NCBI GenBank assembly: GCA_029856045.1 | Contig: JAHQWG010000028.1 | Span: 128,001 to 192,000, forward strand | Direction of reading: 5' to 3' | Source: Promethearchaeia archaeon | GTDB lineage: Archaea; Asgardarchaeota; Lokiarchaeia; Sigyniarchaeales; SOKP01 | Length of the DNA: 64,000 nt | Shown: positions 891 through 37,663 of the stretch, piece by piece | Layout: each line of letters begins with the position of its first letter | How positions within the stretch are numbered: position 1 is the first letter of the stretch | Notes under the pieces: generated by a model | What the model was told of the DNA's origin: nothing | Databases searched by the model: none | The model's input: only the letters and a program-made list of their open reading frames with translations | Made by a program: the position numbers and the translations under genes

Positions 891-916
891 TTGATTTACC
901 TTTAAAAAAAATTAAG

Positions 917-983
917 ACATTTAGATATGAAGTATTTCTCTGAAATATATTTTATTCTTTAGATTATAAATAATACTAGATAA
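917..983 (-). promoter_or_regulatory. Conserved upstream/promoter element of SDR copy 1 (duplicated at ~1975-2044)
   Basis: TTTCTCTGAAATATA.TTTATT.TTTAGATTA...ATACTAGATA is shared with the region upstream of SDR copy 2. Confidence 0.6.
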
Positions 984-1172
984 CAAAGAGCATTAAAAAG
1001 GAAAAAATAAGATTTTAATATTTGTTTAAAATATAATAAAACGATCGAAGAAAGTTAAGAATCCAGCCTTTATGGCAGTAAATGGATATATTCTATTTGA
1101 TTACGATTATTTTGTGAACAATTTTTCATTACAAGTAAATAAATATATAAAAATTAAAACATATTCAAATGT

Positions 1173-1949
1173 TTATCTAATTTTCCAACCTCCATCTATG
1201 CGTAAATCTACACCATTAATATAAGATGATTCATCAGTTGCTAAAAAGAGAATACCAGTAGCTATTTCTTCAGGTCTCGCCCATCGACCCATCACTCTCT
1301 CTTCTTCAAATTCTCTCTTAACCACGTTGTAATCAACACCTCTATCTTTTGCTTGTTTAGATACATCATTTTGCAACATAGGTGTATCAGTAGCTCCAGG
1401 ACTAACACTATTTACCCGAATTCCATAAGGTGCTAAATCTAATGATAAAGCTCGTGTAAACCCTAATACTCCTGATTTCGTAGAACAATAATTTGCATGA
1501 TAAATTTTCCCCATATGAGCTGCTACAGAGGATAAGGTTATGATTACACCATATCTTTGTTTTTTGAAATATGGTACAGTATATTTGCAAGTATAATAAG
1601 TTCCTTTAAGATTAACATCGATCAATAGATCATAATCCTCATCTGGAAAATCTTCAATAGGACCCACTTTCACGACTCCAGCATTACATATTAAAATATC
1701 TATCCTTCCATATTTTTCAATAGTAATATCAATCATATCTTTAATTTCAGCGGGTTTAGTAACATCTACTTTCATAATTATCGTATTTTCTTTTCCTTTA
1801 GTTATCAATTTATAAGTTTCTTTCAAACCTTCTTTATTAATATCAGAAATAATTTGAATTGCTCCTTCTTTTGCAAATAAAATTGCTGTTGCCCTCCCAA
1901 TACCTGATGCTGCACCCGTTAATATTACAATTTTATCTTTTAATCTCAT
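1173..1949 (-). CDS. Classical short-chain dehydrogenase/reductase, copy 2 (tandem paralog)
   Basis: Same length (258 aa) and motifs as 114-890, with high visible identity. Confidence 0.95.
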   Translation of the reverse strand: MRLKDKIVILTGAASGIGRATAILFAKEGAIQIISDINKEGLKETYKLITKGKENTIIMKVDVTKPAEIKDMIDITIEKYGRIDILICNAGVVKVGPIEDFPDEDYDLLIDVNLKGTYYTCKYTVPYFKKQRYGVIITLSSVAAHMGKIYHANYCSTKSGVLGFTRALSLDLAPYGIRVNSVSPGATDTPMLQNDVSKQAKDRGVDYNVVKREFEEERVMGRWARPEEIATGILFLATDESSYINGVDLRIDGGWKIR

Positions 1950-1974
1950 TTTTCTTAACTTTAATGGTTTTTGA

Positions 1975-2044
1975 ACATTTTAAATATAAAGAATTTCTCT
2001 GAAATATAGTTTATTATTTAGATTAAAAAAAAAGATACTAGATA
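1975..2044 (-). promoter_or_regulatory. Conserved upstream/promoter element of SDR copy 2
   Basis: Matches 917-983 at a similar distance from the ATG. Confidence 0.6.
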
Positions 2045-2085
2045 TCTATAAAAAATATTGGGAAAAAAAAGTAAAATAAAAGCAA

Positions 2086-3636
2086 TTATTGAAGTGTATA
2101 TGCTGCAATTTTTTGAAGTTCCTCATTCTTAAGAAATTCTGATGTAGGTAATTTTTGTATTAAGTTTCCATCATCAAGAATTATAACTGTTTTTGAATAT
2201 TGGGCGATAACGCGGGGATCATGAGTTATAATAATGATTGTGTGTTTTTGTTCATGAAGATCTTGAAGAATTTTCATAAATTCTTGAATCATACGATAAT
2301 CCTGACCAGTAGTAGGCTCATCTACTATTAAAATCTCAGGTTTTAGAACTAAAACCGAAGCTAATGCTAATCTTTGGCGAATTCCCTTACTAAGATAAAA
2401 TGTTGATTCATATATTTCTTCAAATTTTCTTAAATCTAATAGATCGATAATTTCATTGTATCGATTTTTAATTTCATCATCGGGAAATTTAAGATTTTTT
2501 AAACCAAATTCAATTTCTTCTCTAATAGTATTTTTAAATAATTGATGGTCAGGGTTTTGATAGCAAAAACCAATAATTTGTGCCATCTGTGTGATAGAAT
2601 ATTGCAAAACAGGATCACCTCTAATAAAGACTTCTCCTTGCTGAGGTCTGAGAAGCCCATTAAAATGCTTTATTAGAGTTGTTTTTCCAGAACCATTTTT
2701 TCCTATAATAGAAATAAAATCCCCATTAAAAATTTTAAGACTTATATCTTTTAGAGCTTGAGTATTATTAGGGTAAGTAAAACTTAGATTAGATATTTCA
2801 ATTATTGGATCCTGTTCTGTCGTTACATATTTACCCGTACTTATTTGTTCTGAAAATTTTAGATTCTTAGAAATTCCATTTTGGGATAAATGTATTGGAA
2901 TATAAATTCCCAATTTGTTTAAAAGTTCCTTATGTTTTAAAAACTCAGAAGTTGCTCCGTTAAATCTAATTTCTCCATTATCGAGAAGTATTATTCTATT
3001 ACAAAATTGAACAATTTTTTCAGTTATATGACTAACCAATATAATTGTCAAATCAAACTCTTTTCTTATTTCCTCAAGTATTTCAATAATTTCATATTTT
3101 CCTATAGGATCGAGATCAGATGTAGGTTCATCTAAGATAAGTATCTCGGGTCTCATTGCCATAATTGAAGCAATAGCAACACGCTGTTTTTGACCTCCAG
3201 AGAGCTCATCGGGTGATTTTTGCTCAAACCCTTCTAATCCAACAAGTTTTAATGCCCATTCAATTCGTTTCTTAATTTCTACACGATCAAGACCTAAAGT
3301 TTCAAGACCAAGAGCAATTTCATCTTCTACTGTTATCATTATAAATTGAGTTTCAGGATCTTGAAATACTAAACCAATACGCTGTCCCAATTCTGTCATT
3401 TTCGCTGTTCGAGTATTTTTACCAAGAACTTCAACATTTCCTTTGATCCATCCGCGAGTTCTTAAAGGAATTAGTCCATTAATACAACAACATAGAGTGG
3501 ATTTACCTGCACCCGTCGGGCCCATAATTCCAATAAACTCACCTTGAGAGATTTTTAAATTAATTGATTTAAGAACCAGATCCTTTGAAGCTTTATATTT
3601 CCATGAAAAATCATTAAATTCTACAACAGTTTTCAA
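2086..3636 (-). CDS. ecfA: ECF transporter ATPase, fused A-A' (two ABC domains)
   Basis: Two Walker A motifs (GPTGAGKST, GKNGSGKTT), QDPETQ/QNPDHQ Q-loops, LSGGQKQR and LSKGIRQR signatures, DEPT twice; TTG start. Confidence 0.93.
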   Translation of the reverse strand: MKTVVEFNDFSWKYKASKDLVLKSINLKISQGEFIGIMGPTGAGKSTLCCCINGLIPLRTRGWIKGNVEVLGKNTRTAKMTELGQRIGLVFQDPETQFIMITVEDEIALGLETLGLDRVEIKKRIEWALKLVGLEGFEQKSPDELSGGQKQRVAIASIMAMRPEILILDEPTSDLDPIGKYEIIEILEEIRKEFDLTIILVSHITEKIVQFCNRIILLDNGEIRFNGATSEFLKHKELLNKLGIYIPIHLSQNGISKNLKFSEQISTGKYVTTEQDPIIEISNLSFTYPNNTQALKDISLKIFNGDFISIIGKNGSGKTTLIKHFNGLLRPQQGEVFIRGDPVLQYSITQMAQIIGFCYQNPDHQLFKNTIREEIEFGLKNLKFPDDEIKNRYNEIIDLLDLRKFEEIYESTFYLSKGIRQRLALASVLVLKPEILIVDEPTTGQDYRMIQEFMKILQDLHEQKHTIIIITHDPRVIAQYSKTVIILDDGNLIQKLPTSEFLKNEELQKIAAYTLQ

Positions 3637-3645
3637 TTTTGTTCA

Positions 3646-4437
3646 CTAAAATAATTCTAGAAAGAGGAATACAAAACTTTTATTGATAAGAGATAAATAG
3701 ATAGAAAAAAATAGAAGTATGAATAAGCCAATAATGATTGCATAATCCTTTTTCTTAATTGGAAAATAATGATAAGTAGTCCTATTTTTTGAGCGTAATG
3801 GAATTCCTCGTGATTCAATAGATGCAGCCATGTCTTCTGTTTTTTTGAACATTAAAACAATTAATACAATAAAAATTGATATAAAATTTTTAATTCTTTT
3901 AGGTATTGAAGCACGTTCAAATTCAACCCCTCGAGTCATCATGGCTTCTCGGACAATAGAATATTCTTGTTGGAACATTGAGAGACCTCGAAAAGTCATA
4001 CTTATAATTAAAGTAACAGTAAAGGGTACCTTAATTGAACGTAATCCATGAATTAAATCTCGATCGGAGATCCCAGCAAAAAAGAATATCATTAAAAAGA
4101 ACATATTAATAATGCGTAAGTAGTATCTCGAAGCAATATAAATCGACTGATCACTAATTAATATATGCCAATTCCCAACCCATGTTTCAAAAAAGATGAT
4201 ATCTCCTTCTACTGGAGTAAAAAAGCACCATACAATATAAATAGATAAAGAAGAAATTAAAATGCCAATAATAATTTTTCTAAATTTCCTTGAAAATATA
4301 GGTATTTTAGCCAATAAACCCAAAATGATGATCAATATAAGGAGGCAAATTAAATCAAAAACGTTAGAAAAGAGTAAGACAACAAAGCTTAAAATAAACA
4401 CAATAGATATCTTTGTAATTGGATGTAGTTTGGTCAT
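3646..4437 (-). CDS. ecfT: ECF transporter transmembrane T component
   Basis: LHPITK N-terminus, TM helices, two conserved xRG motifs (AMMTRG, SIESRG), adjacent to the ECF ATPase. Confidence 0.92.
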   Translation of the reverse strand: MTKLHPITKISIVFILSFVVLLFSNVFDLICLLILIIILGLLAKIPIFSRKFRKIIIGILISSLSIYIVWCFFTPVEGDIIFFETWVGNWHILISDQSIYIASRYYLRIINMFFLMIFFFAGISDRDLIHGLRSIKVPFTVTLIISMTFRGLSMFQQEYSIVREAMMTRGVEFERASIPKRIKNFISIFIVLIVLMFKKTEDMAASIESRGIPLRSKNRTTYHYFPIKKKDYAIIIGLFILLFFSIYLSLINKSFVFLFLELF

Positions 4438-23774: not shown

Positions 23775-24329
23775 TTATAAATAACGAATTTCAGGTTCAA
23801 TTTTCTCCCTTGACAAAGTTAAAAACCCATATGAGTTAATATCCGTAAATTTCTTATCAGTTGGGGTTCCGGGATTAATGAAATATTGATTATCAACCTT
23901 CTCGGTTAATGGCTTGTGTATGTGTCCAAATAATATAATGTGATATTTTTCCAAATCAATATGTTTCTTTAAACGTCGAATCACCATATTAGGACCACCC
24001 CAACCATGTAATAATAAAATGTTATATCCATACGCAGTTAATTCTATGCGTTCAGGCAATTTAGAATTTATCTTCGAATCATCCATATTCCCCCTAATTC
24101 CAATAACTTTATCCCTTCCAAATATATCTTGCAAGCCTTCATACACGCTATAATCCGTAAAGTCACCCAAATGAAATACATAATCCACCTCCTTATCTAA
24201 AAAATCATCAATAATTACTTTAGGAATTTCTGCACATCGAGAAGGGATGTGAGTATCTGCTATCAAACCAATAAAAATTTCATCTTTACTATCATCAATC
24301 ATAAGAAGATACCCAACTTTTGGACTCAA
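23775..24329 (-). CDS. YfcE/MJ0936/Vps29-family metallophosphoesterase
   Basis: ADTHIP, HLGD, RGNMD, LHG, GHIH, INPGT motifs; probable ATG start near 24302. Confidence 0.9.
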   Translation of the reverse strand: MSPKVGYLLMIDDSKDEIFIGLIADTHIPSRCAEIPKVIIDDFLDKEVDYVFHLGDFTDYSVYEGLQDIFGRDKVIGIRGNMDDSKINSKLPERIELTAYGYNILLLHGWGGPNMVIRRLKKHIDLEKYHIILFGHIHKPLTEKVDNQYFINPGTPTDKKFTDINSYGFLTLSREKIEPEIRYL

Positions 24330-24478
24330 TTTTTGAGATATCTTATTAGTAGAAATTATTTAAATACTTTAAACAATATTAAATTAATATAATTTAATTA
24401 ACATTAATTTAAGAGAATTCTTATAAATTATATAACAATCTTTCTTTATCAAAATTAATAGAGGAAATTTATTTAATA

Positions 24479-24486
24479 GGAGAGGA
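24479..24486 (+). promoter_or_regulatory. Shine-Dalgarno-like GGAGAGGA ahead of the ATT start of the small GTPase
   Basis: GGAGAGGA followed by TTAAAT and in-frame ATT at 24493. Confidence 0.6.
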
Positions 24487-24492
24487 TTAAAT

Positions 24493-25113
24493 ATTCCAAG
24501 TCGTCGCGGAGATGGAACACTTGTATTCAAAGTTGTATTCTGGGGTCCCTCTTTAGGAGGGAAAACTACTGCTTTAGAATGGGTTTACAAGAAGGAGGGG
24601 CTTGCTTCAGGTGATATGCAGCAAATAGCTGACCCAACTGGAAGAACCCTCTTTTTTGACAGAGTTGTCGCTCGAGTAAGCAATGTAGTTTTTCAAGTAT
24701 ATACCGTTGCTGGCCAGAGACGCCATAAGTTCCAGAGACGAACGGTCCTCAAAGGAACTGACTGCATCCTCTTCTTTTGGGACAGTTTAATCGACCAGTG
24801 GGAAGAAAATATATGGAGTTTAAAAGAATTATTACAATTTTATGGAGATAAATTAATTTCTAAAAGTTTTTCTGACCCAGCGGAAGTTCCACTCGTTGTT
24901 TGTGCAAATAAACGTGATTTAGAAGATATTGTAGAGATAAATAAGATTCGCGAAGTTCTTGATAAAGCTAAGTTAAATCAAACGTTGGTCTATGAAACGA
25001 TCGCAATTACCGGAGTTAATGTGAAGCGAGGATTTGTTTATGCTGCACGCCAGGGGGTGCTAAATCATTATAAAAAACTTCAGGGCGAAGTGTCCGAGCA
25101 AGAGACTGCGTAA
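24493..25113 (+). CDS. MglA-like small GTPase (Ras superfamily); real start upstream of the called ORF, probably ATT
   Basis: In-frame extension reads IPSRRGDGTLVFKVVFWGPSLGGKTT (P-loop) before the called ATG at 24616; RTLFFD, TVAGQ, NKRD, ETIA motifs. Confidence 0.88.
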   Translation: MPSRRGDGTLVFKVVFWGPSLGGKTTALEWVYKKEGLASGDMQQIADPTGRTLFFDRVVARVSNVVFQVYTVAGQRRHKFQRRTVLKGTDCILFFWDSLIDQWEENIWSLKELLQFYGDKLISKSFSDPAEVPLVVCANKRDLEDIVEINKIREVLDKAKLNQTLVYETIAITGVNVKRGFVYAARQGVLNHYKKLQGEVSEQETA

Positions 25114-25139: not shown

Positions 25140-27338
25140 TTAGATTATTTCTTGAACAATTTTATTTATTTCATCTAAAATATTGCTAATTTTTTCTTTT
25201 ACTTTTATTACGCTAATTTTTTCATCTTTTTGGATAATATCATTTACTTTTTCTTCTGATTTCATACCAATCTTTGATAATTTTTGATGATTAGAATTGT
25301 TGGGATCAAATTCAGGTATGGAGAAATCAAATGGTCGTTTATGAATATGGCGACTACTTTTTACAATCTTGATATTTTCACTAAGGATGGGTGCATTTAA
25401 AATACTTGTTAAATAATAGGCTTCTTCCTTGTAATTAGTTGAGAAATAATAATTTTCAGAACAAATAATGATTTTTTCTATCTCATTATTAATTACTGCA
25501 GATTTTATATTGGAACCGCTTGCGTTGTAAACTACTAGAAATTTTTTATTTGAATTTTGTTTGCTTAATTTATTCCAATAGTTTAGATTATCAAAAAGGG
25601 TGTTAATATTGCTTGTTCCTTTCTTGAATTTCTTGTAGGAATTATTAATTTTATTATAAAACTTTTCTCCGTAAGGAAGTTTTTCAAGGTATTTCTTAGA
25701 GAAATTTAATTTATCGTTAACAGGAAGAAAAATATTTCTTATTTTTTTTATGTAAAATGGAACGAGATCTTTATTCAAAAATGTTTTAAAATGAAAATTA
25801 TTTTCAATTAATTCTTCTTTAAAAAAATTTTTATTCCAAGGTGGTTTGGCTTGTTTTATTGAGTTTATATCAGGAGAAATTATTAAAATATTATCAGATT
25901 CCTGAACACCAACTATACAAAAATAAGTTAAAGCTCGAGGGACTAATGTAGCTCCTTGAAAGAATCTTTTTTTGTAATAGCTTGTTGAGAACTTTTTTAA
26001 TTTATGGTATTGCTCACTTGGAATAATAGATTTTGCACCTTGTTCGCTTATCTCAACAGAGAAATAATTGGTTTCTTTAATTAAATTCAAATTTTGGTCA
26101 AATATTTTTGCAGGAATTGGATATTTACTTTCAATTAAAGTTTTAGATATACTATTAATCTTATTTTGGGAATAATCAAATTTTGATTTGAGTATTATGA
26201 AATCCATATTAAAAAAAGTATATTTTTCAAAATCCCAGATTTCTAAATCATAGAAAAACTTGAAAGCTCGAAATTTTAAGCAGTGATCACCGGTTAAGAC
26301 GCTTTTAGTTAAGATTAAAAAAATAGTTCCATTATTTTTTAGAAATAATTTGGGGGTCTGGTAAAAAAATAATGAGGCTATCTCGATATGAGTAATATAT
26401 TGACTCTTAGGTTTTATTCCCAATCTATCTGCTAAATTTCTAAGATTAATTTGATATTTTTTATCATTTACATCTTTATATGTTAACCATGGAGGGTTTC
26501 CGATTATTAAATCAAATTTATTTTTAAAATCTTGATATGGAAATAGGAAATCATCTGTAGGATTTAATGGATCAAATCGATAAAAATTGACGGTAGGCAA
26601 AAAGTCCTCTAAAATATTATATATATCTTGAATATTTAAAAGGAAATTTGCAGTAGTTACTAAAATTGCTATTGGGTTTATGTCTAATCCGTAAATATTG
26701 TTTAAATTTTTTATTTTCTCTTTATTATTTAGGTCAGAATTTAGTATTATTTTTATTATTTCCATTAAAAACATACCTGAGCCACATGAACAATCAAGAA
26801 CTTTCATGCCTAATGAATAAGCATCTTCAATCATCAATATAGCTAGGTTTTTTGGAGTGAAATACTCTCCTTTTTCATGTCGAGCAGATTGATTAATCAT
26901 TTCTTGATAAATATGAAAAAATAAATCTTCATTTGAAATTTTATAATTCCCTATTTGATCTACGATTAAATTAGTAAATGAATCAGCATTGGAAAGCCAA
27001 TTGAATATCTCATTTATTTTTAAATGCTTTAATTTTTTATTAAATATTTCTTTTGTTTTATTTTTTTCTTGAATATTATGTAATTGTCTCTCTATGAAAT
27101 GTAAAATAATGGTCTTTACTAAATAATATAGATATGTATGGTTTAGGAATAGTTGGTGTGTTAGATTTTGTGATTTATATAATTTTTCAAAAGATTTCTT
27201 CCATTTGTTAAAATAAAAATCATAAGTTTTTCTTGATTTTCTTTTTGATTGATTTAAGTATTTAATTGAATTTTGAAAAAAAGCAGATTTATTTCCAAAC
27301 AATGTTGAGAGTTTTCTTGAATCTATAATAGAGTTCAT
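25140..27338 (-). CDS. N6-adenine DNA methyltransferase (type IIG/Eco57I-like MTase + TRD region)
   Basis: GEYFTP, motif I VLDCSCGSGMFL, GLDINP, motif IV IIGNPPW, C-terminal TRD-like region; no recognisable N-terminal nuclease motif. Confidence 0.88.
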   Translation of the reverse strand: MNSIIDSRKLSTLFGNKSAFFQNSIKYLNQSKRKSRKTYDFYFNKWKKSFEKLYKSQNLTHQLFLNHTYLYYLVKTIILHFIERQLHNIQEKNKTKEIFNKKLKHLKINEIFNWLSNADSFTNLIVDQIGNYKISNEDLFFHIYQEMINQSARHEKGEYFTPKNLAILMIEDAYSLGMKVLDCSCGSGMFLMEIIKIILNSDLNNKEKIKNLNNIYGLDINPIAILVTTANFLLNIQDIYNILEDFLPTVNFYRFDPLNPTDDFLFPYQDFKNKFDLIIGNPPWLTYKDVNDKKYQINLRNLADRLGIKPKSQYITHIEIASLFFYQTPKLFLKNNGTIFLILTKSVLTGDHCLKFRAFKFFYDLEIWDFEKYTFFNMDFIILKSKFDYSQNKINSISKTLIESKYPIPAKIFDQNLNLIKETNYFSVEISEQGAKSIIPSEQYHKLKKFSTSYYKKRFFQGATLVPRALTYFCIVGVQESDNILIISPDINSIKQAKPPWNKNFFKEELIENNFHFKTFLNKDLVPFYIKKIRNIFLPVNDKLNFSKKYLEKLPYGEKFYNKINNSYKKFKKGTSNINTLFDNLNYWNKLSKQNSNKKFLVVYNASGSNIKSAVINNEIEKIIICSENYYFSTNYKEEAYYLTSILNAPILSENIKIVKSSRHIHKRPFDFSIPEFDPNNSNHQKLSKIGMKSEEKVNDIIQKDEKISVIKVKEKISNILDEINKIVQEII

Positions 27339-27463: not shown

Positions 27464-27994
27464 TTACCTCATAAAAGATGGAAGCATATTCGAGAAGATC
27501 TGTTCAATTCTCACTAATTTTTTTTTTTCTTTAACAAGAGTTCCTATTAAAATAGAATTAGTTAATTCTTTTTTTACCAAAGATGCTGCACTGAATACAA
27601 CTTCTTTTTCATTCATAACTAAGAGACATTTTACATTAGGGTTATTCACAATACTTACATTGGATTTTGTTTTTAAGTTATCGTAGTATTGTTGAAATTC
27701 TTGTGGGATAAATCTTCTGTCATTAATTATCATAAGTACAGGGATTCCCTTTTTAGCTACACTTAAAATATTTTCAGAATAGAAAGGTCCAATTTTTGGG
27801 GTTATTATTTTTAAACTAGATACAGTTGAGTTTATAACTGATAAAATTTTCTCATTTAGTGCTTCTTTTTTACCTTCAATTCCAGATGGAAAAAGATCAA
27901 TCAGACCGACAATGGAGATAATTTTTTGTTCGAGTTCATTTACCTTATCTCTTAATTTAGTATTTTCTAATCTTAATTGTGATATTCTATCCAT
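27464..27994 (-). CDS. Coiled-coil + degenerate PLD-superfamily (HKD-less) domain protein
   Basis: N-terminal coiled coil; LKIITPKI..SVAKKGIPVLMII..; NVKCLLVMNEKEVVFSAASL resembles HxKxxxxD...GSxNL without the catalytic H/K. Confidence 0.55.
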   Translation of the reverse strand: MDRISQLRLENTKLRDKVNELEQKIISIVGLIDLFPSGIEGKKEALNEKILSVINSTVSSLKIITPKIGPFYSENILSVAKKGIPVLMIINDRRFIPQEFQQYYDNLKTKSNVSIVNNPNVKCLLVMNEKEVVFSAASLVKKELTNSILIGTLVKEKKKLVRIEQIFSNMLPSFMR

Positions 27995-28078: not shown

Positions 28079-30652
28079 TTATTCAAGCATTTTCCAGGGC
28101 TTTCCGAAAAGAAGAAATGAATTAAAAGCAATGATTGATTCTACATTTATGTCTTGTTGTATATCTATTTCTTTTTGGTCAACATTTGACGCCACCTTAT
28201 TTAGAAGAATTTTTTGTCGTGCTTTCAATACAGAAATTCCTTGACTAAACCCATCAGTTAGATTATTATATATATTTGAAATTAATTGCCTTGTATTATC
28301 GTTAAAATCGTATAAAATTCTTATAATAATTCCAGTTATCTCGTTTTGATCGAAATTTTGAATTATCTTAGAAATAACCTTTAAAATTGATGGTAATTGA
28401 TCTCCCAAAAGATTGAATATACGTACATTAAAGAAAATGAATGGTTTTTTGCTAGTAGTAGTCTTTTTTATAGCATAATTAATATCTGAAATAGAAACTG
28501 TTTGATAATCATTAGTAATAAAATAACTATTTTTTGGATTCTCGGTTGAATAAAATAAATTTCCAATGATATGAATGATGTCATTAGTGCCTGAGATTAT
28601 ACTATTTAAAACATTTTCTCGGGTTAAATTTTCTTGTATGTAATATTCCATATGGTCAACGAAAGAAGATTCACTGAAATATTGGATAATATGATTTAAC
28701 TCATTTACACCTTCATTAAAGGGATACATTAACACATTATTTTTTGTGGCATCATCCCATTTTGATGGAAGCATTAAATTTAAACTCCCAAAAGTTAATA
28801 TATTAAATTTTTGTTTCGATTGATCTAAAGGCAAAATAGGTATGTTCGAATTAATTCCTCTTAAATCAGGTTCTCCTAGAGAGTATCCAATAGGATATTT
28901 CAAAGAAAAGAATCCAGACCCATCGTGGATTAAATCAAACGGTATATTTATTTTATCAAGTATTAAAAATATGTGAGGAATATGATCTGTACAATCTTGT
29001 TTCAATTTTAAAAATATATTTCTAAGTTTTTTTGGAAGAGATAAATACAGAAGTTTTCCAAAATCTACAAATGTTATATCTTTTTCAACTTCTATATTCC
29101 AAAAAAGATCATTATAAATTTTAATTAAATAAGCGTCGTTCCAATATTCATCAACAATTATATCTTGAAATTCTTGTGAATCCTCGAATTTTCCAAAATA
29201 ATTTATTTTCCCATTATCTCTAATTCTTATTGAGAGATATTCGATTTTCAGATTCTCTTTTTCGTCGAATAGATTAAATAATCCTTCATCTTGTTGATCG
29301 AAAAAAGTCATATTTTCAAGTTCCTGAGAATATTCATTTGGAAATTCTTGTAAATTTGTCAATAATGGTTGTATTTTTTTGGATAAAAATTTATTTATAT
29401 TTTCGCTTAAATTTATATCCTGTTCTTCAAAAAATGCTCTATAAAACATTGAATTCCAAAATTCAAATTTTTCAGGTGTAATAAATTTAGTTTTTAGCCT
29501 CCAAATAAAATTATAGACATAAAAGTAATGCACTATTTGTTTAGCATTTGAAGGAGTTGAAATATTTTTTTGTAATTCTTCTAATGATCTCAAAAGATAT
29601 TTTTTTTCTTTTAGATCTCTAAAATTTTTGCAAGCGTCAGCCCAATGTTCAATTAAAAGAAAATTATATTTATTTTTATAGAATTCTTTAAAATAATTCC
29701 CTAAAAACTTATATAAATTAAATGATATCTCAAATCGATTTCTTTTTAGTAAAAAATATAAGTATTTCTTTATATAATCAACAGCATCATCTAGGGAATT
29801 GAATTGAATAATCTTAAGAAAAATATTCTCAATTAAACTCAATATCCAGCTAGATTCTCCGATATCATTCAAATACATCAATAAATTTTCTAAATCTGAG
29901 AAGATCTCATTAAAATTTGTTTCATTTATTTTTATTTTTGATAAATGAGAGAATTCACTTTTTAATTCAGGGCGTAATTTATCTACCATAATATTATTTA
30001 TCTCTTTTACAAATTCTTCAGAATTCTCCTTTAATTGAAATGAGATTCCAATATTTTCTATAAAAACATATAGTAATAAGGTTCTTTTAGTAGGCTCAAT
30101 TTTTTTTAGAAATTCCCATAAAAAATTTACAGAAAAATAATATATTGATGATGGAGAAACTGATTTATTAAGGTAAATGGATAGAATTTGGTATTTAAGT
30201 AATTCATGATAATTTCCTTCATCTTTCATAATGTTTGAAAGAGAGTTTAGTAATTTTATTAAACCATTAATTGAAACGTCTGGTTGATTAATATAAGATT
30301 TGATAAGATTTTTTCCGTGATTTAGTAATTCATAATATTTGTTTTGTTTAGCCAAAAAACCAAAATAACGATTATAAGAATCATAATATTTTATAACGTC
30401 AAAAATTGAGCCCTCGTCGGTTTGTTGAATTAGAGACTGCAAATATTTATCCCAAGAATTATTTAAAATTTCATTTAATTGGTCTTTTTTTTGAAGGTTT
30501 ATCCAATCTGCCTTTTGAATATCAAAATATAGCTTTGTGAATAACTTATCTGCCCATTTATGATTTCCTAACTTTAACAATTTTCGACCTTGGATTATTT
30601 GCTGTTCAAAATTCTTGAAAAACTCTTGGTTTTTTTCATTTTGAGAACTCAT
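28079..30652 (-). CDS. Alpha-helical solenoid + CHAT (caspase/HetF-like) domain protein, apparently inactive
   Basis: FGKLLY..LP, NIPFDLIHDGSGFFSLKYPIG, DIIHIIGN, FIFFNVR, VLKARQ, FLLFGKP match the CHAT layout; the N-terminal ~450 aa are helical. Confidence 0.75.
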   Translation of the reverse strand: MSSQNEKNQEFFKNFEQQIIQGRKLLKLGNHKWADKLFTKLYFDIQKADWINLQKKDQLNEILNNSWDKYLQSLIQQTDEGSIFDVIKYYDSYNRYFGFLAKQNKYYELLNHGKNLIKSYINQPDVSINGLIKLLNSLSNIMKDEGNYHELLKYQILSIYLNKSVSPSSIYYFSVNFLWEFLKKIEPTKRTLLLYVFIENIGISFQLKENSEEFVKEINNIMVDKLRPELKSEFSHLSKIKINETNFNEIFSDLENLLMYLNDIGESSWILSLIENIFLKIIQFNSLDDAVDYIKKYLYFLLKRNRFEISFNLYKFLGNYFKEFYKNKYNFLLIEHWADACKNFRDLKEKKYLLRSLEELQKNISTPSNAKQIVHYFYVYNFIWRLKTKFITPEKFEFWNSMFYRAFFEEQDINLSENINKFLSKKIQPLLTNLQEFPNEYSQELENMTFFDQQDEGLFNLFDEKENLKIEYLSIRIRDNGKINYFGKFEDSQEFQDIIVDEYWNDAYLIKIYNDLFWNIEVEKDITFVDFGKLLYLSLPKKLRNIFLKLKQDCTDHIPHIFLILDKINIPFDLIHDGSGFFSLKYPIGYSLGEPDLRGINSNIPILPLDQSKQKFNILTFGSLNLMLPSKWDDATKNNVLMYPFNEGVNELNHIIQYFSESSFVDHMEYYIQENLTRENVLNSIISGTNDIIHIIGNLFYSTENPKNSYFITNDYQTVSISDINYAIKKTTTSKKPFIFFNVRIFNLLGDQLPSILKVISKIIQNFDQNEITGIIIRILYDFNDNTRQLISNIYNNLTDGFSQGISVLKARQKILLNKVASNVDQKEIDIQQDINVESIIAFNSFLLFGKPWKMLE

Positions 30653-30702
30653 ATTTTTATTAACTCAACTAAAACTAATTAAAATTAATTATATTTGACA
30701 CT

Positions 30703-31905
30703 TCAATCTTCATCTACTTCGTTAGAAGGAGGTTGGGATATAACCTCACCATTTTGATTTTTATTTTGAAAATTTGGATTTTCAATCCATCCTTTCGTAA
30801 TTAATCCACGAGAATATAAAATAGAGGCTCCAATCCAACCCATATCATCTCTTCCTGTTGGTGTAATAACCTTAATTTCATCTCTGATTTTTTCGGAAAA
30901 AAACTTACCAACTTCCACTTTTAATCTTTTACCAAGATCTTTAATTAGGCTAGTTCCGCCACAAAGAATAATATTTTGGAGTAATTCCAACCAATCATTC
31001 CTATTCCATGTTTTAACAAGATCTGCAATCATTTTTGGTAATTCTATAATATCCAAATGAATTCGATTTGGATTGAATAAAGGTTCGGGAATCATTATTC
31101 TTTCATAATTAATCGTAAAAATACATCCATCAGGTAGTTGAATTTCTTGGTCAAAAGAACTTAACCCTTCTTCAATTTTTTTTTTAGTTTCTTTAGGATT
31201 AAAAACACATATTGAAGATCTATCTTTTATTTCTCGTGCAATCCATTTATCTATATAATTTATTTTGTATTTCTTATTAAATAATATTAAATCCATAAAA
31301 TATTCAGTAAGATCCTTTCCTGCAATTGGAAAAAAGTCGCGAGCTGAGAAATTACTAAATCCATGTAAATATGTTGAAACAAACGAATTTTGCTCTCCTA
31401 GATTGATAACAACCCCTGTATTTTTACCTATGGCAGATAAAACACAATCAGAAAAAGTAAGAAAATTAATTTGGGGGAAATTTAATTCATCTAAAAATAT
31501 CTGTTGCATTTTTTTTTTATCATTCTCTGAACTAGTAAAAGGAAATAAAACAATTAATGGCTGTTGGAAAAAAAAGTTCTGTTCTATTCCCAATTGATGA
31601 TAATAATATAAAAAGAATTTTTTCAAGACGTTATAATTTTTTTCTATTACAAATTGATGATTATTCAAAATATCTTTATATTTTAACGCTTCAGACCCAT
31701 ATAGATGTTTTTCTGTATTCTTAGAAATAACAATATCCTTTAATCCTGAAATATTATCTGATTTATATATGGGATCTGTTATATCCGTATATATACTTGG
31801 AACTATAATATCGGGAAGATCGTCTCCCGCAAAACCTAACCGAAAATTAGCAGAACCTATATCTAAGATTAGGGGACGCAAAAACTCTTCTTTCTCATTT
31901 TCCAT
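30703..31905 (-). CDS. Actin-related protein (Asgard ARP)
   Basis: PLILDIGSANFRLGFAGDDLP..IVPS, YGSEA, TGVVINLG, IAGKDLTEYF, AREIKD, LPDG..I..ER...PE.LF.P, NIILCGGTS, WIGASIL. Confidence 0.93.
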   Translation of the reverse strand: MENEKEEFLRPLILDIGSANFRLGFAGDDLPDIIVPSIYTDITDPIYKSDNISGLKDIVISKNTEKHLYGSEALKYKDILNNHQFVIEKNYNVLKKFFLYYYHQLGIEQNFFFQQPLIVLFPFTSSENDKKKMQQIFLDELNFPQINFLTFSDCVLSAIGKNTGVVINLGEQNSFVSTYLHGFSNFSARDFFPIAGKDLTEYFMDLILFNKKYKINYIDKWIAREIKDRSSICVFNPKETKKKIEEGLSSFDQEIQLPDGCIFTINYERIMIPEPLFNPNRIHLDIIELPKMIADLVKTWNRNDWLELLQNIILCGGTSLIKDLGKRLKVEVGKFFSEKIRDEIKVITPTGRDDMGWIGASILYSRGLITKGWIENPNFQNKNQNGEVISQPPSNEVDED

Positions 31906-32017
31906 AATATTTTATATGCAATTTATCCTTAAAAAAACCTTGTTATTACACCAAAAAAACTGTGAAATCCGTGGTTTTTAGGAGAACTAAGAAATATTAA
32001 TTAATTAATTCTAAACT

Positions 32018-32710
32018 CTATGAAGGTTTAAGTAAAAGCTCCGAAACTTCTTTTTTTAATTGATATTCTTGAATCTGTAATTCTAGAAGGCCTAATATTT
32101 TTTTAAAATCTTTCGAAATTACCCCAAAATTAGTGTTTGAAATTTTTTCAATTTCATTGCGCTTTATTTCAAAATCAGTTAATCCTTTTTGTGTTTTTGC
32201 AAGTAAATTTTCTATCGAATTTATCAGCTGTTCTGTGTTTTTTTTGGTTATTTTTCTCATTTTTCGTAAAATAGATAAAATCATTCCAGTAGAATTCTCC
32301 CATCTTGTGTATCTATCACTAAAACTATTAAATAATTCTGTAAAAAAAAGATTCATATTCTCATATAAATTCAATTCTTCTCTATGGGGTGTTGTTGGTA
32401 AATCTTCAATTTCTTTAAAATCCTCTAAAACCTCGATCTTTATACCGGACTCTTCAGATATCGTTTTATTATCCTGACTAGTTTCAGATGTCAATTGTGG
32501 GGTTATCTCGATATTATCATTTTTCTCATTTGCAGTTTCTTCAGTTTTTGACTCCGCTTTTCCTCCCATAAATTCTTCTAAAGCTTTTTTACTATCTTTA
32601 CTTTTTTTCAAAGCGGTCTCTAAAAAACTAAGTCCATCTTGCTTTACTTCTGGCTCACTTAAATCTTCATCCTTTTCTGATTTTTCTTTCTTAACCTTCT
32701 TCTTAGCCAT
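32018..32710 (-). CDS. Hypothetical protein: charged disordered N-terminus + C-terminal coiled coil
   Basis: K/E-rich low-complexity first ~110 aa, then heptad-like helical region. Confidence 0.8.
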   Translation of the reverse strand: MAKKKVKKEKSEKDEDLSEPEVKQDGLSFLETALKKSKDSKKALEEFMGGKAESKTEETANEKNDNIEITPQLTSETSQDNKTISEESGIKIEVLEDFKEIEDLPTTPHREELNLYENMNLFFTELFNSFSDRYTRWENSTGMILSILRKMRKITKKNTEQLINSIENLLAKTQKGLTDFEIKRNEIEKISNTNFGVISKDFKKILGLLELQIQEYQLKKEVSELLLKPS

Positions 32711-32745
32711 AATAATTCATAATTTTTTTAAAATTCTTTAAAAAT

Positions 32746-33147
32746 CTATTCAATTATCTCAATTTTCTGAGCATTACCTCTTTGAATTAATGTTTCAATT
32801 ACATTATCAATATTTAAACCATCAGGAATAGGTGCAATCACATTCCATATCGCTAATTTTCCTTTCTCAATAACGATTGCTTCACCGTAAATAAGAGAAA
32901 TATTTAATTCACCTATGGTTTTTGCAATTAGTGCTAATGAACCCGCAACATCATTCATATAAATTTTTAATTTAACAGTGTCTTTTTCTCCAGTCCAACC
33001 TACGGGATAGATTCGAATTTCTTTCTTCTCACTATCTGCTATCATCATTATTTGGGTTGCATCCTCGATCCCTAACGATTTTCGGAAGATATTTGGAATT
33101 ACTATTCTTCCTCTTGTATCAATATTGAGAATTCGTGCTTCTTTCAT
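32746..33147 (-). CDS. AbrB/MazE/SpoVT DNA-binding domain + ACT domain regulator
   Basis: IDTRGRIVIPNIFRKSLGI (AbrB); DVAGSLALIAKTIGELNISL (ACT). Confidence 0.9.
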   Translation of the reverse strand: MKEARILNIDTRGRIVIPNIFRKSLGIEDATQIMMIADSEKKEIRIYPVGWTGEKDTVKLKIYMNDVAGSLALIAKTIGELNISLIYGEAIVIEKGKLAIWNVIAPIPDGLNIDNVIETLIQRGNAQKIEIIE

Positions 33148-33232: not shown

Positions 33233-36200
33233 TCATATTTTCTCTTCTTTTTGCTTTCTTAATAAGAGATATAAAATAATAACGACTGTAATTATTAGCG
33301 GAAAAAACACTGCCAAAGGGTTTCCTCCTGTTAAATTATTGAGGGCTAAAGAAATTGTAAACAAAGCGGCAATTAAAGAGATAACTGATCCATATTGACT
33401 GGCAACGAATCTTAATCTATTAAGGATCTCATAAAATTTGAAGTTTGTGGTTTTAATAACTTTTAACTTAGCAGGATTTAAACTATCAATAATTTCAGGA
33501 TTCTCATAATATAACTGAAGTTCAGGGTCATATTTTCCTGGTAAAGCATTTTCACCAATCAATGTGATAATATATGTTTGGATTTTATCTTTTTTAATTT
33601 TAAGTTCGCGCGCCAAAAAAGATATTGTTATATATTCGTCTTTAACCGCTTTAATAACAATTTTTACATAACTTTTAAGTATTAATTGCTCTAATTTTTT
33701 AATTTTCTCATTAATTATCTCATCATACTCATGCAGAAAATGTTTAAAATCGTCAAAAAGAAATTTATTTTTTGTATTGAATGTAGGAGATGATTTTTTG
33801 AATTCTTTTTTAAGTTTAGATGTTTCGTTTTCAATATATTTTAATCTTTCACGTATTTTTTTTACCCTTCTTTGAACCATAATACTTGTAGATTTAAAAT
33901 CTTTAATTTCTAATTTGTCTTCAACTTTTCGTTCTAAGGATCCAAGCATTTGATTAAGTATAACCTGGTTTCTATTTATAAAATGCATCAAATCTTCTTT
34001 TAAAGCGTCATTTTTAATCAAGTCTAATTTTTTTGATAAATTTTCCTTAAATTCTTCAAATTCTTTATTAAATTGATGCTTCTTAAAAACAAGTTCTTCT
34101 CGAATTTCAGAATTTGATATTTTTAAACTTTCATTCTCTACCATCATGGTACTAATTTTTTGTTCAATCTCATTCAAAGAAATTTTCCTAGTTTCTGATA
34201 ATTTTAAGATTTTACCGCTAAAATTATTTATAAGTTTATCATAATCGTTTATTTTTTCAGCTTCGTCTTGAAATAATTTATTTAATTCCCGTAATTGGAT
34301 TCTTAAAGAGTTGAATTCTTCACCGATGAAACTTACAAGTTGATTAAAAATTATTGTATTTTTGTTAATTTCATTAATAATATTCCTATATCTATTAAGT
34401 TCAGTATTAAAAAAATTTTTATTCGCTATGAAATCATCTCTATTTGTATTTATTCCAATTTTTAAAATTTCATTTTGGTAACTTCTTTCTAAATTTAATT
34501 GCTGGTTATTAAATTCTTCTATTCTATTTTGAATTTCTAAAACATTAACTTTAAGAGATTTATTTTTTATTGCAGATTCATATAGAGATACTAATTTTCC
34601 GAAATTATTTCCTAATTTCTCTATTTGTTTTTCTATAAAATTTCTCAATTGTTTATTCTTATAATAGTTATCTGTGAATACAAGGAGTTCCTTGTTATTT
34701 TCATCCAATTCTCCATCTAATTTTGTAATTTCTATCATTTCATTGATTCTTTCGATCAATATATTACATTTTAGATTTAATTTTTTCTTTAAATCATCCA
34801 GTTTTATGAGATTTGTATGGGATTGCGAGGTATTTGACAGAATCTCTTGTTTAATAATCTCATTTGTATATCTATTTTTTAAATCATTCAAATTATTTTT
34901 AAATAGATCTATGAATTTATTCCATGATAACATACATAACTTTGATTTCTCTTGAAAATCTACTACAATTTTAGCAAGTTCTTTTACTTTATCTTTAACT
35001 TTTTCATTGAGATCTGAATAATTTTTAGAAAGTTCAGCAATTCGAGATTTTAAATTGGCGATTTTAAGTTTTTGATAATTTAAATCTTTCGCACATTCAT
35101 TTTCTTTCTTTCTTAATTGTTCTTCTAAAATGGAAATATTGCTTTTTATAAAATTATCAAATTCTTTTAATTTCTCAAGTTCCCGTTCTTGAATAACTTT
35201 ATCTTCAATAGAATTTCGATAATTATCAAATTTCTCAATTATTTTCTGCTCTAATTTATTCCAATCCTCTTGAATTTTTTTTAGAAGTAGAAAAAGTTTT
35301 CTCTTACTCTTCAAATGTTCCTTTAATTGAGATTGGGATTTTTTAATTAATTCTAATTTTTCATTTAAAAGCTTCTCAGTTTTTTCTTCAATAATTTCCA
35401 GTGCCAGTTGATATTTTTTTTCCTTTAAGATTAAATCAACTGTGTTTTTGAGTTCATTAATCATCATAGAAGTACTTTGTTCTATTTCCTTTATTTCATT
35501 TTTATCATTTTCATAAATCTTAAATCCTTCTAGGAAATAATCAATAAATGTATCTGCATCTTCTTTAATTGATATCCATTTTGAGATAACCTTCTTTTGC
35601 GTTTTTTGAATGGATTTTTCTTTAGAAGTAATTTTATGTGATATTTTATAGATTTGCGTATCTAATTTCGTGATTTCTGAATTAAGATGTTCGCAAACTT
35701 TTAATAATTGTTGAACAATTCCATTAGAATATGATTTCTCTAGGGATTCTCTAAATAAATTTTTAAAGTGGTCAATTAAAGAATAAATCTTTTGTTCATT
35801 TTTATCAATTAAATCTTCTAACTTATTCAAAATTAATTTGAAATTTTTTAGATTTTCTTTTTCCTTGAAAATTTCATTAAAATAATTTTGTAAATTAAAA
35901 TATTTGCCTCGAATTTCTGAATAATTCTTGTTCCATTCCACTATCTCATTGGATAACTGATAATTTGGATTTATGTATTTAAAATCTGTAGAAAAGGAAT
36001 TTTCAATATTTTCATTTAAAAAATCGGCTTCCATTAAAGCATTTTTTACATTATATTTTAACCTTTCTCTTGCTAAATCGAATTCATTTACAAGTATTAA
36101 GCTTTTAATCTCTTCTTTAATCTTTTTTGGTGTATCTTTTAATTTGATTATTATATTATAAATATCTGTTTTTATTTCCTCCAATTTAAATTTTTCATTA

Positions 36201-37663
36201 ATTATTTCTTCGCTATTTATATTAGAATCAATTCTAATTACTTCAGAAATAAATTTGTCTTTATATAGATAATATTTGCTAAAAAAAATCATGTTTTTCC
36301 GAAGAATTCGACCTAGGAAAAAGTTGTGCGAAATTAAATCTTCTGTTAGAAGGATCAAATCCCTAATTTTTTTTGGCTTATTTGGGTAATTGTATTTGTA
36401 GTCATTCAGAAGTTTATTTAAATAGATAACGCTATTATTTTTTATCGATGCATATACTGATTTAGCTAAATATGCATTTTCTCGGGTTAAATTTCTTAAA
36501 TAATTATTAAATTCAATTTCATTATCTAAAATCTCCAAATTAAAGTTGTATTTCTGATTAATATGTCTGAGAATTTCTGGTATTCCCTCATTTATTCCTA
36601 ACTCTTTTTTTAAAATATTTAAGTCTAAAGAAGTATTTATATCAAAATGTCTAAAAGCAGTTCTCTCAACTTCTTCAATAAATTTAGACCAAATAAATGA
36701 GCACATTAAAATAATTTTCGAAATATCCATTAATTTCAAGGTATTAAATGAACTATAATCATGATTTAAGCCTTTAATTTTCGTTGAGAGAAAAGAATAA
36801 ATCTTTCCACGATTGTAATCAAAGAACCAGGAATAATTTTCCAAAACATAAATAATCCAAAATGTTTCATTTATTTTCCCAACATTTTCCTTAAAACTAA
36901 AACCTCCATCATTTTGTTGAAATTGGTGTAAATATTTTAAGTGTTTAGTCTCAATATCAGAAATTAAATCAAAATATTTAAGACTAAGTAATTGAAATAC
37001 TATGGAATATTTCTTTTTTAAATCATTAAAATATTTTAAAAACACATTTTGTTCTAATTTGATATCAAAATCTAGAAGAATCAATGCTTCTATTACGAAA
37101 AAACTTGTTCTAATAGGCGTTGTTTTTTGGCAAATTGTACAATTTTTGTTTAAACAATGAATAAAACGCCCTTTATCTCTGGTCTTATAAATAAAATTAA
37201 TAATCTTTTCTTTTATATTTTCTCTTGAATGTGTAGATAAATAGGCATCTAATTGTCCTAATAAATTTAAACTGGCTAAAGCAAAAAAGGTTGACCAATT
37301 ATCTGGTTTTCTCTGTTTAGATTCAGGGGAAAACTTAAATCCTAGGGAATTTTCTTCAAAAATTTCACATCCTGTTATGAAATTAATGATCTTTTTGAGA
37401 TTTATAGATATATCTTCCCTCAAATATTTCCCCAATAAAAGAAACCAATATATATTCTCTAAATTCAGATTTCTGAAATTTAATAATTTTTTTTCAAAAA
37501 AACGATAAATTTTCACAATCTTATCATATTCAGGTATAAAAAAACTTCCTATATCGTCATCTATGGCAAAAGTAAATGATCTAAACGGCTTCTTTTTGAA
37601 TACCGTTACATACGGATAGGCAGAATTATCTTTTACCTTTGCCATGTTATTGTGCTCAACCAA
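33233..37663 (-). CDS. Giant membrane-anchored protein: prenyltransferase/squalene-cyclase-like alpha-alpha repeats, long coiled coil, PCI-like winged helices, two C-terminal TM
   Basis: IINFITGCE...GFKFSP..PDNWSTFFALASL, YLHQFQQNDGGFS..INETFWII; extensive heptads; ITISFLARELKI...IITLIGENALPGKYD; terminal hydrophobic hairpin. Confidence 0.8.
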   Translation of the reverse strand: MVEHNNMAKVKDNSAYPYVTVFKKKPFRSFTFAIDDDIGSFFIPEYDKIVKIYRFFEKKLLNFRNLNLENIYWFLLLGKYLREDISINLKKIINFITGCEIFEENSLGFKFSPESKQRKPDNWSTFFALASLNLLGQLDAYLSTHSRENIKEKIINFIYKTRDKGRFIHCLNKNCTICQKTTPIRTSFFVIEALILLDFDIKLEQNVFLKYFNDLKKKYSIVFQLLSLKYFDLISDIETKHLKYLHQFQQNDGGFSFKENVGKINETFWIIYVLENYSWFFDYNRGKIYSFLSTKIKGLNHDYSSFNTLKLMDISKIILMCSFIWSKFIEEVERTAFRHFDINTSLDLNILKKELGINEGIPEILRHINQKYNFNLEILDNEIEFNNYLRNLTRENAYLAKSVYASIKNNSVIYLNKLLNDYKYNYPNKPKKIRDLILLTEDLISHNFFLGRILRKNMIFFSKYYLYKDKFISEVIRIDSNINSEEIINEKFKLEEIKTDIYNIIIKLKDTPKKIKEEIKSLILVNEFDLARERLKYNVKNALMEADFLNENIENSFSTDFKYINPNYQLSNEIVEWNKNYSEIRGKYFNLQNYFNEIFKEKENLKNFKLILNKLEDLIDKNEQKIYSLIDHFKNLFRESLEKSYSNGIVQQLLKVCEHLNSEITKLDTQIYKISHKITSKEKSIQKTQKKVISKWISIKEDADTFIDYFLEGFKIYENDKNEIKEIEQSTSMMINELKNTVDLILKEKKYQLALEIIEEKTEKLLNEKLELIKKSQSQLKEHLKSKRKLFLLLKKIQEDWNKLEQKIIEKFDNYRNSIEDKVIQERELEKLKEFDNFIKSNISILEEQLRKKENECAKDLNYQKLKIANLKSRIAELSKNYSDLNEKVKDKVKELAKIVVDFQEKSKLCMLSWNKFIDLFKNNLNDLKNRYTNEIIKQEILSNTSQSHTNLIKLDDLKKKLNLKCNILIERINEMIEITKLDGELDENNKELLVFTDNYYKNKQLRNFIEKQIEKLGNNFGKLVSLYESAIKNKSLKVNVLEIQNRIEEFNNQQLNLERSYQNEILKIGINTNRDDFIANKNFFNTELNRYRNIINEINKNTIIFNQLVSFIGEEFNSLRIQLRELNKLFQDEAEKINDYDKLINNFSGKILKLSETRKISLNEIEQKISTMMVENESLKISNSEIREELVFKKHQFNKEFEEFKENLSKKLDLIKNDALKEDLMHFINRNQVILNQMLGSLERKVEDKLEIKDFKSTSIMVQRRVKKIRERLKYIENETSKLKKEFKKSSPTFNTKNKFLFDDFKHFLHEYDEIINEKIKKLEQLILKSYVKIVIKAVKDEYITISFLARELKIKKDKIQTYIITLIGENALPGKYDPELQLYYENPEIIDSLNPAKLKVIKTTNFKFYEILNRLRFVASQYGSVISLIAALFTISLALNNLTGGNPLAVFFPLIITVVIILYLLLRKQKEEKI

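Follow-up and report, generated by a model that had tools for sequence, protein, structure and literature searches.

Lokiactin is the sister of eukaryotic actin and shares roughly 58-60% identity with actin. Beside Lokiactin, Asgard archaea encode further actin-related proteins (ARPs), a recognised class with a patchy distribution and no assigned function (PMC9834061). In 'Ca. L. ossiferum', three ARPs accompany Lokiactin, all of which are transcribed below the Lokiactin level (PMC9834061), and five 'asgardactin' clades have been described (PMC8850707). Here, we analysed an ARP encoded in 64,000 nucleotides (nt) of DNA from a Promethearchaeia archaeon (assembly GCA_029856045.1, contig JAHQWG010000028.1, positions 128,001 to 192,000; this whole stretch is called the window below). 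A prediction made from the letters alone had described it as a divergent, non-polymerising or hydrolysis-impaired ARP that is distinct from Lokiactin and acts as a complex subunit. Our results indicate that it is probably a hydrolysis-impaired, nucleotide-binding subunit of a module that also contains a TPR-CHAT pseudoprotease and two small proteins. The ARP has the fold of actin together with most of its elements for nucleotide binding, lacks the ATP-hydrolysis network of actin (Q137F, D154N, H161F), and would serve as a slowly or non-hydrolysing structural subunit. The gene and the relevant parts of its product are as follows:

30703..31905, minus strand: ARP gene (P0001), an open reading frame (ORF) of 400 amino acids (aa) matching Pfam Actin with 152.8 bits
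31840..31863, minus strand: phosphate-1 loop DIGSANFR (actin D11-K18), with Asp, Gly and Ser kept, G15 replaced by A and K18 by R
31723..31773, minus strand: subdomain-2 (D-loop region) insert, residues 45-61, from the alignment to the Lokiactin of the same genome
31447..31455, minus strand: F151-S-D153, in which F151 aligns with actin Q137
31381..31404, minus strand: phosphate-2 loop NLGEQNSF, in which N168 corresponds to actin D154, G170 to G156, E171 to D157, Q172 to G158 and F175 to H161
31222..31227, minus strand: K227-D228, equivalents of actin K213-E214 (ribose and adenine contacts), kept
30949..30966, minus strand: adenosine loop LCGGTS (actin G301-G302-T303), kept
30706..30759, minus strand: low-complexity acidic C-terminal tail ending in PPSNEVDED, with a predicted local distance difference test (pLDDT) score below 50 for residues 382-400

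The ORF starts with ATG and runs over 400 codons without an internal stop. Its product matches PF00022 (Actin) over residues 11-381 with E=1.4e-44, the curated cut-off of this family being 27 bits, and matches PDB actins at E~1e-33 to 1e-36. The AlphaFold2 (AF2) model, which drew on 68 relatives, has the four-subdomain actin fold (pLDDT 80.7; predicted template modelling score, pTM, 0.78). Conventional actins were the top Foldseek matches of this model (template modelling, TM, scores of 0.78-0.80, 23-26% identity), and actin was also the closest structure according to VIA-align (Z 37.1, root mean square deviation 2.4 over 338 residues, 26% identity). The intact ORF, the Pfam match and the modelled fold thus bear out the identification as a divergent ARP, and the motifs DIGSA, NLGEQ and LCGGTS were found where the original prediction had placed them. 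A same-genus ortholog in genome G144 is 89% identical, with a ratio of nonsynonymous to synonymous substitution rates (dN/dS) of 0.17. Therefore, the gene is under purifying selection. Metagenome DNA runs from marine sediment and salt marsh contain window positions 27464-33200; no RNA run was among the holders listed. The ARP is a selected, lineage-specific actin-fold protein that has diverged strongly.

We then compared its nucleotide pocket with that of actin. The correspondences were taken from two MAFFT alignments and from the HMMER match to an Asgard actin of solved structure, which agree and are gap-free across the region; the residue assignments rest on these alignments and on the predicted model, and family counts refer to 120 members of the ARP family. 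In the phosphate-1 loop, actin D11, G13, S14, G15 and K18 correspond to D15, G17, S18, A19 and R22, and the family has the Asp in 109/120, the Gly in 120/120 and the Arg in 111/120 members. The Lys at position 227 is invariant (120/120) and followed by Glu or Asp in 117/120. In the adenosine loop, actin G301/G302 correspond to G316/G317; G316 is invariant, G317 is present in 117 and S319 in 119 of the 120 proteins. Overall, the equivalents of G13, S14, G156, K213, E214 and G301-G302 are retained in 90-100% of the family. E171, at the position of actin D157, is kept in 113/120, and D353 takes the place of actin K336. In its nucleotide loops, the window's ARP has Asn for D154 and Gln for G158 but retains the phosphate-1 Asp, Gly and Ser, the phosphate-2 Gly and the adenosine Gly-Gly. 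The retained adenine, ribose and phosphate-backbone elements suggest that the ARP still binds nucleotide.

The hydrolysis sites read F151/N168/F175 in the ARP, compared to Q/D/H in the Lokiactin of its own genome. None of the three canonical residues occurs at its position in any family member: the Q137 position holds Glu in 101, Asp in 14 and Phe in four proteins (Gln 0/120), the D154 position Asn in 94 and Ser in 23 (Asp 0/120), and the H161 position Tyr in 72, the rest having Ile, Ser, Thr, Phe or Leu (His 0/120). The family consensus of the Q137-region motif is E-S-Q; F-S-D/E is restricted to the small subclade of the window. When the remote cousins of the family were included (together the superclade), the H161 column lacked His in 18/18 rows and the Q137 column lacked Gln in 17/18, P0126 being the sole row with Gln. 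The replacement residues, together with the retained glycines, Lys and Ser, rank among the best-conserved columns of the family. This also bears on whether the gene is simply a decaying, functionless actin paralog with an eroding active site, as the loss of the canonical catalytic residues and the lowest Pfam Actin score of the three paralogs in this genome might imply. The chance of this is next to nil, since more than 60 genomes carry an uninterrupted frame, dN/dS is low, mean column identity across the family is 66%, and the replacement residues are themselves conserved (N168 in 94/120, E171 in 113/120). We rejected a decaying pseudogene, which these conservation data contradict.

High-resolution structures of F-actin show that Q137 holds the attacking water, which is activated by D154 and H161, and actin Q137A/D154A/H161A has no measurable ATPase (PMC9646518). 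As far as the aligned residues tell, the ARP is in effect a natural triple replacement of actin's Q137/D154/H161. Hydrolysis is likely impaired, or strongly slowed, in this protein, and likelier so than in the family at large. The claim of impaired hydrolysis is strongly suggested by the replacement of the whole network, and it stands as a prediction.

To place the ARP in its genomic context, we searched a GTDB-coded sample of 301 Asgard genomes across the phylum, in which a family match was defined as more than 380 bits. The ARP family was present in 62 of the 69 genomes of the window's own GTDB family, source genome included, and in no other sampled family; elsewhere, the best match reached about 130-140 bits, the level of a Lokiactin cross-match. 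Remote cousins with ~29% identity occur in the sister family, such as the ARP of genome G285, which is 29% identical to the window's ARP. A profile of the partner gene described below (TPR-CHAT) gave a corresponding picture, with the module in 63/68 genomes of the family, 2/7 of the sister family and none of the ~225 other Asgard genomes sampled. The module is therefore confined to one order among the 301 genomes, throughout which Lokiactin is found. The submitter labels of P0010, P0047, P0060, P0075, P0091, P0093, P0095 and P0104 name Hod-, Thor-, Odin- and Hermodarchaeota, which conflicts with the GTDB-coded distribution over one family; these labels may be loose.

Four adjacent genes would supply the components of the module, namely the ARP, a protein with a helical domain, a TPR-CHAT protein with a dead dyad, and a coiled-coil plus PLD-like protein with a dead HKD motif. 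Besides the ARP gene, these and the gene upstream of them are:

28079..30652, minus strand: gene of the TPR-CHAT (separase/Csx29-like) protein, 857 aa, assigned by CHAT match, fold and adjacency
27464..27994, minus strand: gene of the coiled-coil plus PLD-like protein, 176 aa, with position and sequence conserved in seven loci
32018..32710, minus strand: gene of the helical-domain protein, 230 aa, at the same position in L004, L005, L006, L025, L027 and L028
32746..33147, minus strand: AbrB/MraZ-like plus ACT-like gene, 133 aa, upstream of the module

The window and four distant family members share one gene order, in which an AbrB/ACT-like gene of ~134 aa is followed by a 230-288-aa gene, the ARP gene, an 831-867-aa gene and a 165-179-aa gene. 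In all other family genomes in which both were found (61/61), the ~850-aa gene directly follows the ARP gene in the same orientation, after a gap of ~20-70 nt; in the window the gap is 50 nt. The two genes are also lost jointly. Seven genomes of the family lack a family ARP: in two of these, the assembly breaks off within the partner gene at a contig end, and the other five genomes (one genus, two of them 99% complete) lack the ~850-aa gene as well. In the sister family, a 4.3-Mb single-contig genome encodes a 362-aa ARP 3 nt upstream of an 853-aa partner homologue (27% identity), and homologues of the 230-aa and 176-aa genes lie on either side of this pair. For an adjacent ARP and partner in a sister-family genome, identities of 29%/28% were obtained. 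A 4.4-Mb single-contig genome of that family is without the module. Among three further, metagenomic cousins, P0132 and P0127 keep the four-gene order and P0135 has an 833-aa gene directly after it, with the ARP and partner genes overlapping by 4 nt at P0127 and P0135; L025, L027, L028 and L029 are the cousin loci with this adjacency. The whole superclade is defined by this operon. Its conserved core excludes the AbrB/ACT gene, a 1476-aa gene upstream and a methyltransferase gene downstream. The AbrB/ACT gene occurs in the window's GTDB family only and is absent from the sister-family loci, and is therefore accessory, possibly a regulator.

The 61/61 adjacency, the joint loss and the 4-nt overlaps in the cousins favour the idea that the ARP is a complex subunit, a part of the original prediction for which the support comes from gene context; physical association with the neighbours is what these patterns would lead us to expect. 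A complex prediction for ARP residues 11-380 with TPR-CHAT residues 228-857, made in two runs without controls, gave an interaction score (ipSAE) of 0.00, which speaks neither for nor against binding. No fused (Rosetta-stone) form from the family was found among longer proteins, the sole match being 25% identical, which is weak evidence. One candidate fusion came from genome G201 (locus L030, G201:C28:214300-218700, positions 276..4028, minus strand), where ARP and TPR-CHAT lie in one frame, split by one TAG and 27 nt. We rejected it, as the apparent 1256-aa frame consists of two genes; a single read-through would join them.

The AF2 model of the 857-aa protein (pLDDT 84.5) consists of a helical solenoid (residues ~1-465) and a beta-rich C-terminal part with a caspase fold. 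Pfam CHAT is matched by 12/17 of its orthologs (best E 4.4e-7), and end-to-end Foldseek matches were TPR-CHAT/Csx29 at E~1e-10 and DdvA and separases at E 6e-8 to 4e-5; a PDB sequence search with the profile of this protein gave no match. The catalytic dyad is replaced in 17/17 orthologs, with Asn in the His column and Val, Ser, Ala, Thr or Gly in the Cys column. Nevertheless, no part of the protein is as conserved as the 30 residues surrounding the dead His, which suggests that they form a putative binding site. The 176-aa protein has an N-terminal coiled coil, a PLD-like domain with NPNVK in place of HxK, weak DrmC/PLD matches (E=6e-4) and an invariant C-terminal MLPSFMR. In the 230-aa protein, a variable, charged N-terminal half precedes a conserved helical C-terminal domain of ~115 residues. 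Judged by their aligned motifs, the actin-, caspase- and PLD-fold members of the module all lack the canonical catalytic residues.

Some of these features would also fit an anti-virus defence island made up of a CHAT scaffold, a relative of PLD-type nucleases and a type IIG-like methyltransferase, with the ARP as the ATP-sensing component. Csx29, the TPR-CHAT protein of type III-E CRISPR, is among the closest solved relatives of the 857-aa protein, the 176-aa protein weakly matches DrmC of DISARM (E=6e-4), and the window and four further loci have an Eco57I/type IIG-like methyltransferase gene downstream. We nevertheless consider a defence function very improbable. With the CHAT dyad and the PLD His replaced, neither protein can be expected to cut; the sister-family loci lack the methyltransferase; and, unlike patchy defence islands, the module occurs in single copy and in synteny almost throughout its family (62/69 genomes). 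Moreover, PADLOC returned no match for the ARP, the 857-aa protein or the coil protein, and NCBIfam likewise gave nothing for these three.

A more elaborate mechanism can be drawn from the same observations. The four genes may encode the first ARP complex outside eukaryotes, composed throughout of pseudoenzymes and working by a CHAT pseudosubstrate clamp and a nucleotide latch. The dead, separase-like CHAT domain would clamp a segment of a partner, candidates being the conserved acidic subdomain-2 insert of the ARP (D-G-L-E-D-type) or the invariant C-terminus of the small protein, and unhydrolysed nucleotide in the ARP would act as a conformational latch. If so, the use of actin-fold proteins as non-polymerising components of large assemblies would have evolved independently in Asgard archaea. 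In this full form, we regard the proposal as quite unlikely.

Besides the pocket, three further regions of the ARP had been pointed out or were found to deviate from actin. The D-loop region is divergent, as claimed: its insert in subdomain 2 makes it ~11 residues longer than in the Lokiactin of the same genome. AF2 confidence is low there, and S49, I52, G54, L55 and E56 are nearly invariant across the family, which indicates a functional element rather than slack. In the groove that receives the D-loop or a WH2-type helix, L349, T351 and M355 of actin are replaced in the family by K/Q, K/Q and G. Such a polar barbed-end groove argues against canonical longitudinal contacts, although another kind of polymer is still possible. 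Together with the insert, it hints, weakly, that the ARP may be non-polymerising in the canonical actin manner. The acidic C-terminal tail is present in the ARP and in its G144 ortholog, but it is a genus-specific trait and not the family feature one might have supposed, since the median tail of the family is 8 residues long and an acidic end occurs in 14/120 members.

Several points weigh against a hydrolysis-impaired subunit of a complex. Glu occupies the Q137 position in most of the family, like E140 of MreB (PMC9597168), and the subclade of the window carries an acid two residues further along (D153), so that an alternative hydrolysis route is possible. A pocket kept under purifying selection would fit a working ATPase equally well as a pure nucleotide-binding switch. 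Gene adjacency, as a genomic pattern, would be no proof of physical binding, and a non-canonical homopolymer of the ARP may be compatible with all data. In a different view, the ARP would form filaments as a specialised homologue of actin, comparable to crenactin, ParM or MamK, polymerising by a geometry of its own and with its operon partners as adaptors or regulators. The ARP gene does stand together with genes of small partners, and prokaryotic actin-like proteins are typically encoded with adaptors, as in the crenactin-arcadin cluster (PMC5173319). The Glu could position water as in MreB, the pocket is strongly conserved, the conserved insert in subdomain 2 could make a new longitudinal contact, and the ARP model aligns with crenactin at Z 30.9. 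However, the catalytic motif of MreB, E...T-X-[D/E], needs an acid at the H161 position too, and MreB lacking the motif releases phosphate slowly (PMC9597168). That acid is absent from the ARP family, which has the consensus E then Y, and the window's own ARP has Phe at both the Glu and the [D/E] position, without even the Glu. As the groove that would receive the D-loop is also polar, we regard a filament-forming protein as unlikely, although it deserves serious consideration.

We next compared the ARP with Lokiactin. The source genome (3.34 Mb, 55 contigs) contains three actin-family genes, which score 443, 290 and 146 bits against Pfam Actin. The 443-bit gene encodes a canonical Lokiactin of 380 aa with DNGTG, Q, DIGDG and H intact, the 290-bit gene a 372-aa paralog, and the present ARP, with 146 bits, is the most divergent of the three. 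It is 27% identical to the Lokiactin of its own genome and 26% to the second paralog. This second paralog (G000 contig C23, locus L002, 1471..2589, minus strand) is 43% identical to the same Lokiactin and carries replacements of its own at the hydrolysis sites (Q137 to D, D154 to E, H161 to R), so that two of the three actin-family genes of the source genome have non-canonical ATPase sites. Since another gene of this genome encodes a canonical Lokiactin, the ARP is not the filament-forming actin of the cell.

In a HMMER search covering 1.84 billion cluster representatives, the ARP family appeared as one 50%-identity cluster at 404 bits. Below it, there was a gap down to 148-190 bits, where a few unnamed or Asgard-labelled proteins with 26-32% identity were found; ordinary actins scored at most 120 bits. 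In a maximum-likelihood tree of 150 rows, the ARP family formed one clade with a Shimodaira-Hasegawa-like approximate likelihood ratio test (SH-aLRT) support of 100, and family and cousins together formed the superclade with a support of 99, which sits across the tree from the Lokiactin of the source genome, the second paralog and the sampled eukaryotic actins. Since the tree contains neither an outgroup nor named Arp2-10, it speaks for separateness only and not for ancestry. Within this scope, the phylogeny with Lokiactin did not place the ARP family among the Lokiactins and, with the 27% identity, upholds the predicted distinction from them. Lokiactin proper is ruled out as an identity of this protein by its 23-26% identity to actins, its separate clade and the loss of Q137/D154/H161. 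Among the proteins seen in these comparisons was a cluster (P0251; WP_387461369.1 and relatives) recorded from Nocardia and annotated as 'actin, cytoplasmic 2'. The contigs measure 90-617 kb, and the cluster represents either contamination or a eukaryote-like actin that bacteria have acquired.

We also asked whether any eukaryotic Arp is particularly close. The ARP model aligned by VIA-align with Arp3 at Z 34.0, Arp4 at 32.2-32.9, Arp7 at 31.9, Arp5/Arp8 at 28-31, Arp6 at 28.2-31.2, the dynactin Arp chain at 29.4 and crenactin at 30.9. Identities to eukaryotic Arps were 16-22%, compared to 26% for actin, and no eukaryotic Arp was closer than actin in this structural comparison. A library search held only actins, Arp1-like and unnamed proteins among the best 150 of its 4414 matches, without a named Arp2-Arp10; 30 cluster look-ups gave Arp1/centractin, divergent actins and unnamed proteins. 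Matches of the ARP to the MamK and BeeR models of NCBIfam were far under the cut-offs. These data bear on the idea that the ARP is a regulator that caps, nucleates or anchors Lokiactin filaments, like Arp2/3 or Arp1/Arp11, with its partners as accessory subunits. For such a role speak the order of structural matches, with actin first (Z 37.1) and then Arp3 (Z 34.0), the Phe at the Y169 position (F183), the kept W357/W373 core and the presence of a canonical Lokiactin in the same genome. But no single eukaryotic Arp is nearer than actin, none of the neighbours came up as a homologue of an ARPC or dynactin subunit, and Lokiactin occurs throughout the 301 genomes while the module is limited to one order. 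A regulator of Lokiactin filaments is therefore, in our view, decidedly improbable.

Further genes surround the module. Just downstream lies the gene of the Eco57I/type IIG-like methyltransferase (25140..27338, minus strand, 732 aa), which is also found in four loci of the same GTDB family and is followed in two of these four by a 382-aa DEAD/ResIII helicase gene; it is absent from the sister-family loci. Upstream, the 1476-aa protein (33233..37663, minus strand) has a prenyltransferase-like repeat, a long coiled coil and a weak PCI match and is restricted to the window's lineage. Other genera of the family have a 690-740-aa VWA-domain protein at this position and a Roadblock/LC7-like 129-aa gene nearby. 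An Arf/Ras-like small GTPase and a Metallophos_2 phosphoesterase are encoded near the module (23775..25113). The same pair lies downstream of the module in L004, and the GTPase alone in the P0004 context, which indicates that synteny extends beyond the operon.

In the searchable literature, we found no description of an ARP with a site rewired in this way, nor of an ARP-TPR-CHAT or ARP-separase cluster. The clade provides a concrete handle on Asgard ARPs, as it combines a fixed and interpretable rewiring of the ATPase site with three invariant neighbours, which are likely partners. If the proteins assemble, an archaeal actin fold would serve as a static, nucleotide-loaded subunit like the nuclear Arps of eukaryotes, next to a separase-type scaffold that works without proteolysis. 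The restriction of the module to one order among the 301 sampled genomes and the lack of a specific tie to any eukaryotic Arp point to parallel innovation and not directly to eukaryotic ancestry.

How does the locus compare to the systems known so far? With Lokiactin, the ARP shares the fold, the genome and the Pfam family, but it differs by 27% identity, three changed hydrolysis residues, an 11-residue insert, a polar groove and a clade of its own. Other Asgard ARPs and asgardactins are likewise paralogs with an actin fold that group apart from Lokiactin; the fixed loss of Q137/D154/H161 and the invariant operon with a TPR-CHAT pseudoprotease set its clade apart from them. As in the crenactin-arcadin cluster of Thermoproteales and in bacterial ParMRC- and MamK-type loci, an actin homologue is encoded with dedicated small partners. 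Crenactin, however, is an active, polymerising ATPase, whereas the ARP, 16% identical to it, lacks the hydrolysis network. The 857-aa protein resembles the TPR-CHAT proteins, namely Csx29 of type III-E CRISPR, separase and DdvA, in having N-terminal helical repeats followed by a CHAT caspase-fold domain; in contrast to these, its dyad is replaced and it goes with an ARP and not with a CRISPR effector, securin or a sigma factor. Nuclear Arps (Arp4, Arp8, Arp7/Arp9) likewise combine an actin fold carrying insertions with a modified ATPase site, and they are fixed, non-polymerising subunits of larger complexes, held by helical partners; their structural similarity to the ARP model is Z 32-33 for Arp4, 31.9 for Arp7 and 28-31 for Arp5/Arp8. 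They differ in their 16-22% identity to the ARP and in their surroundings: in the loci compared, we saw no gene for a chromatin-remodeller ATPase, and INO80, SWR1 and SWI/SNF are without counterparts of the TPR-CHAT, PLD-like and helical-domain proteins that accompany the Asgard ARP.

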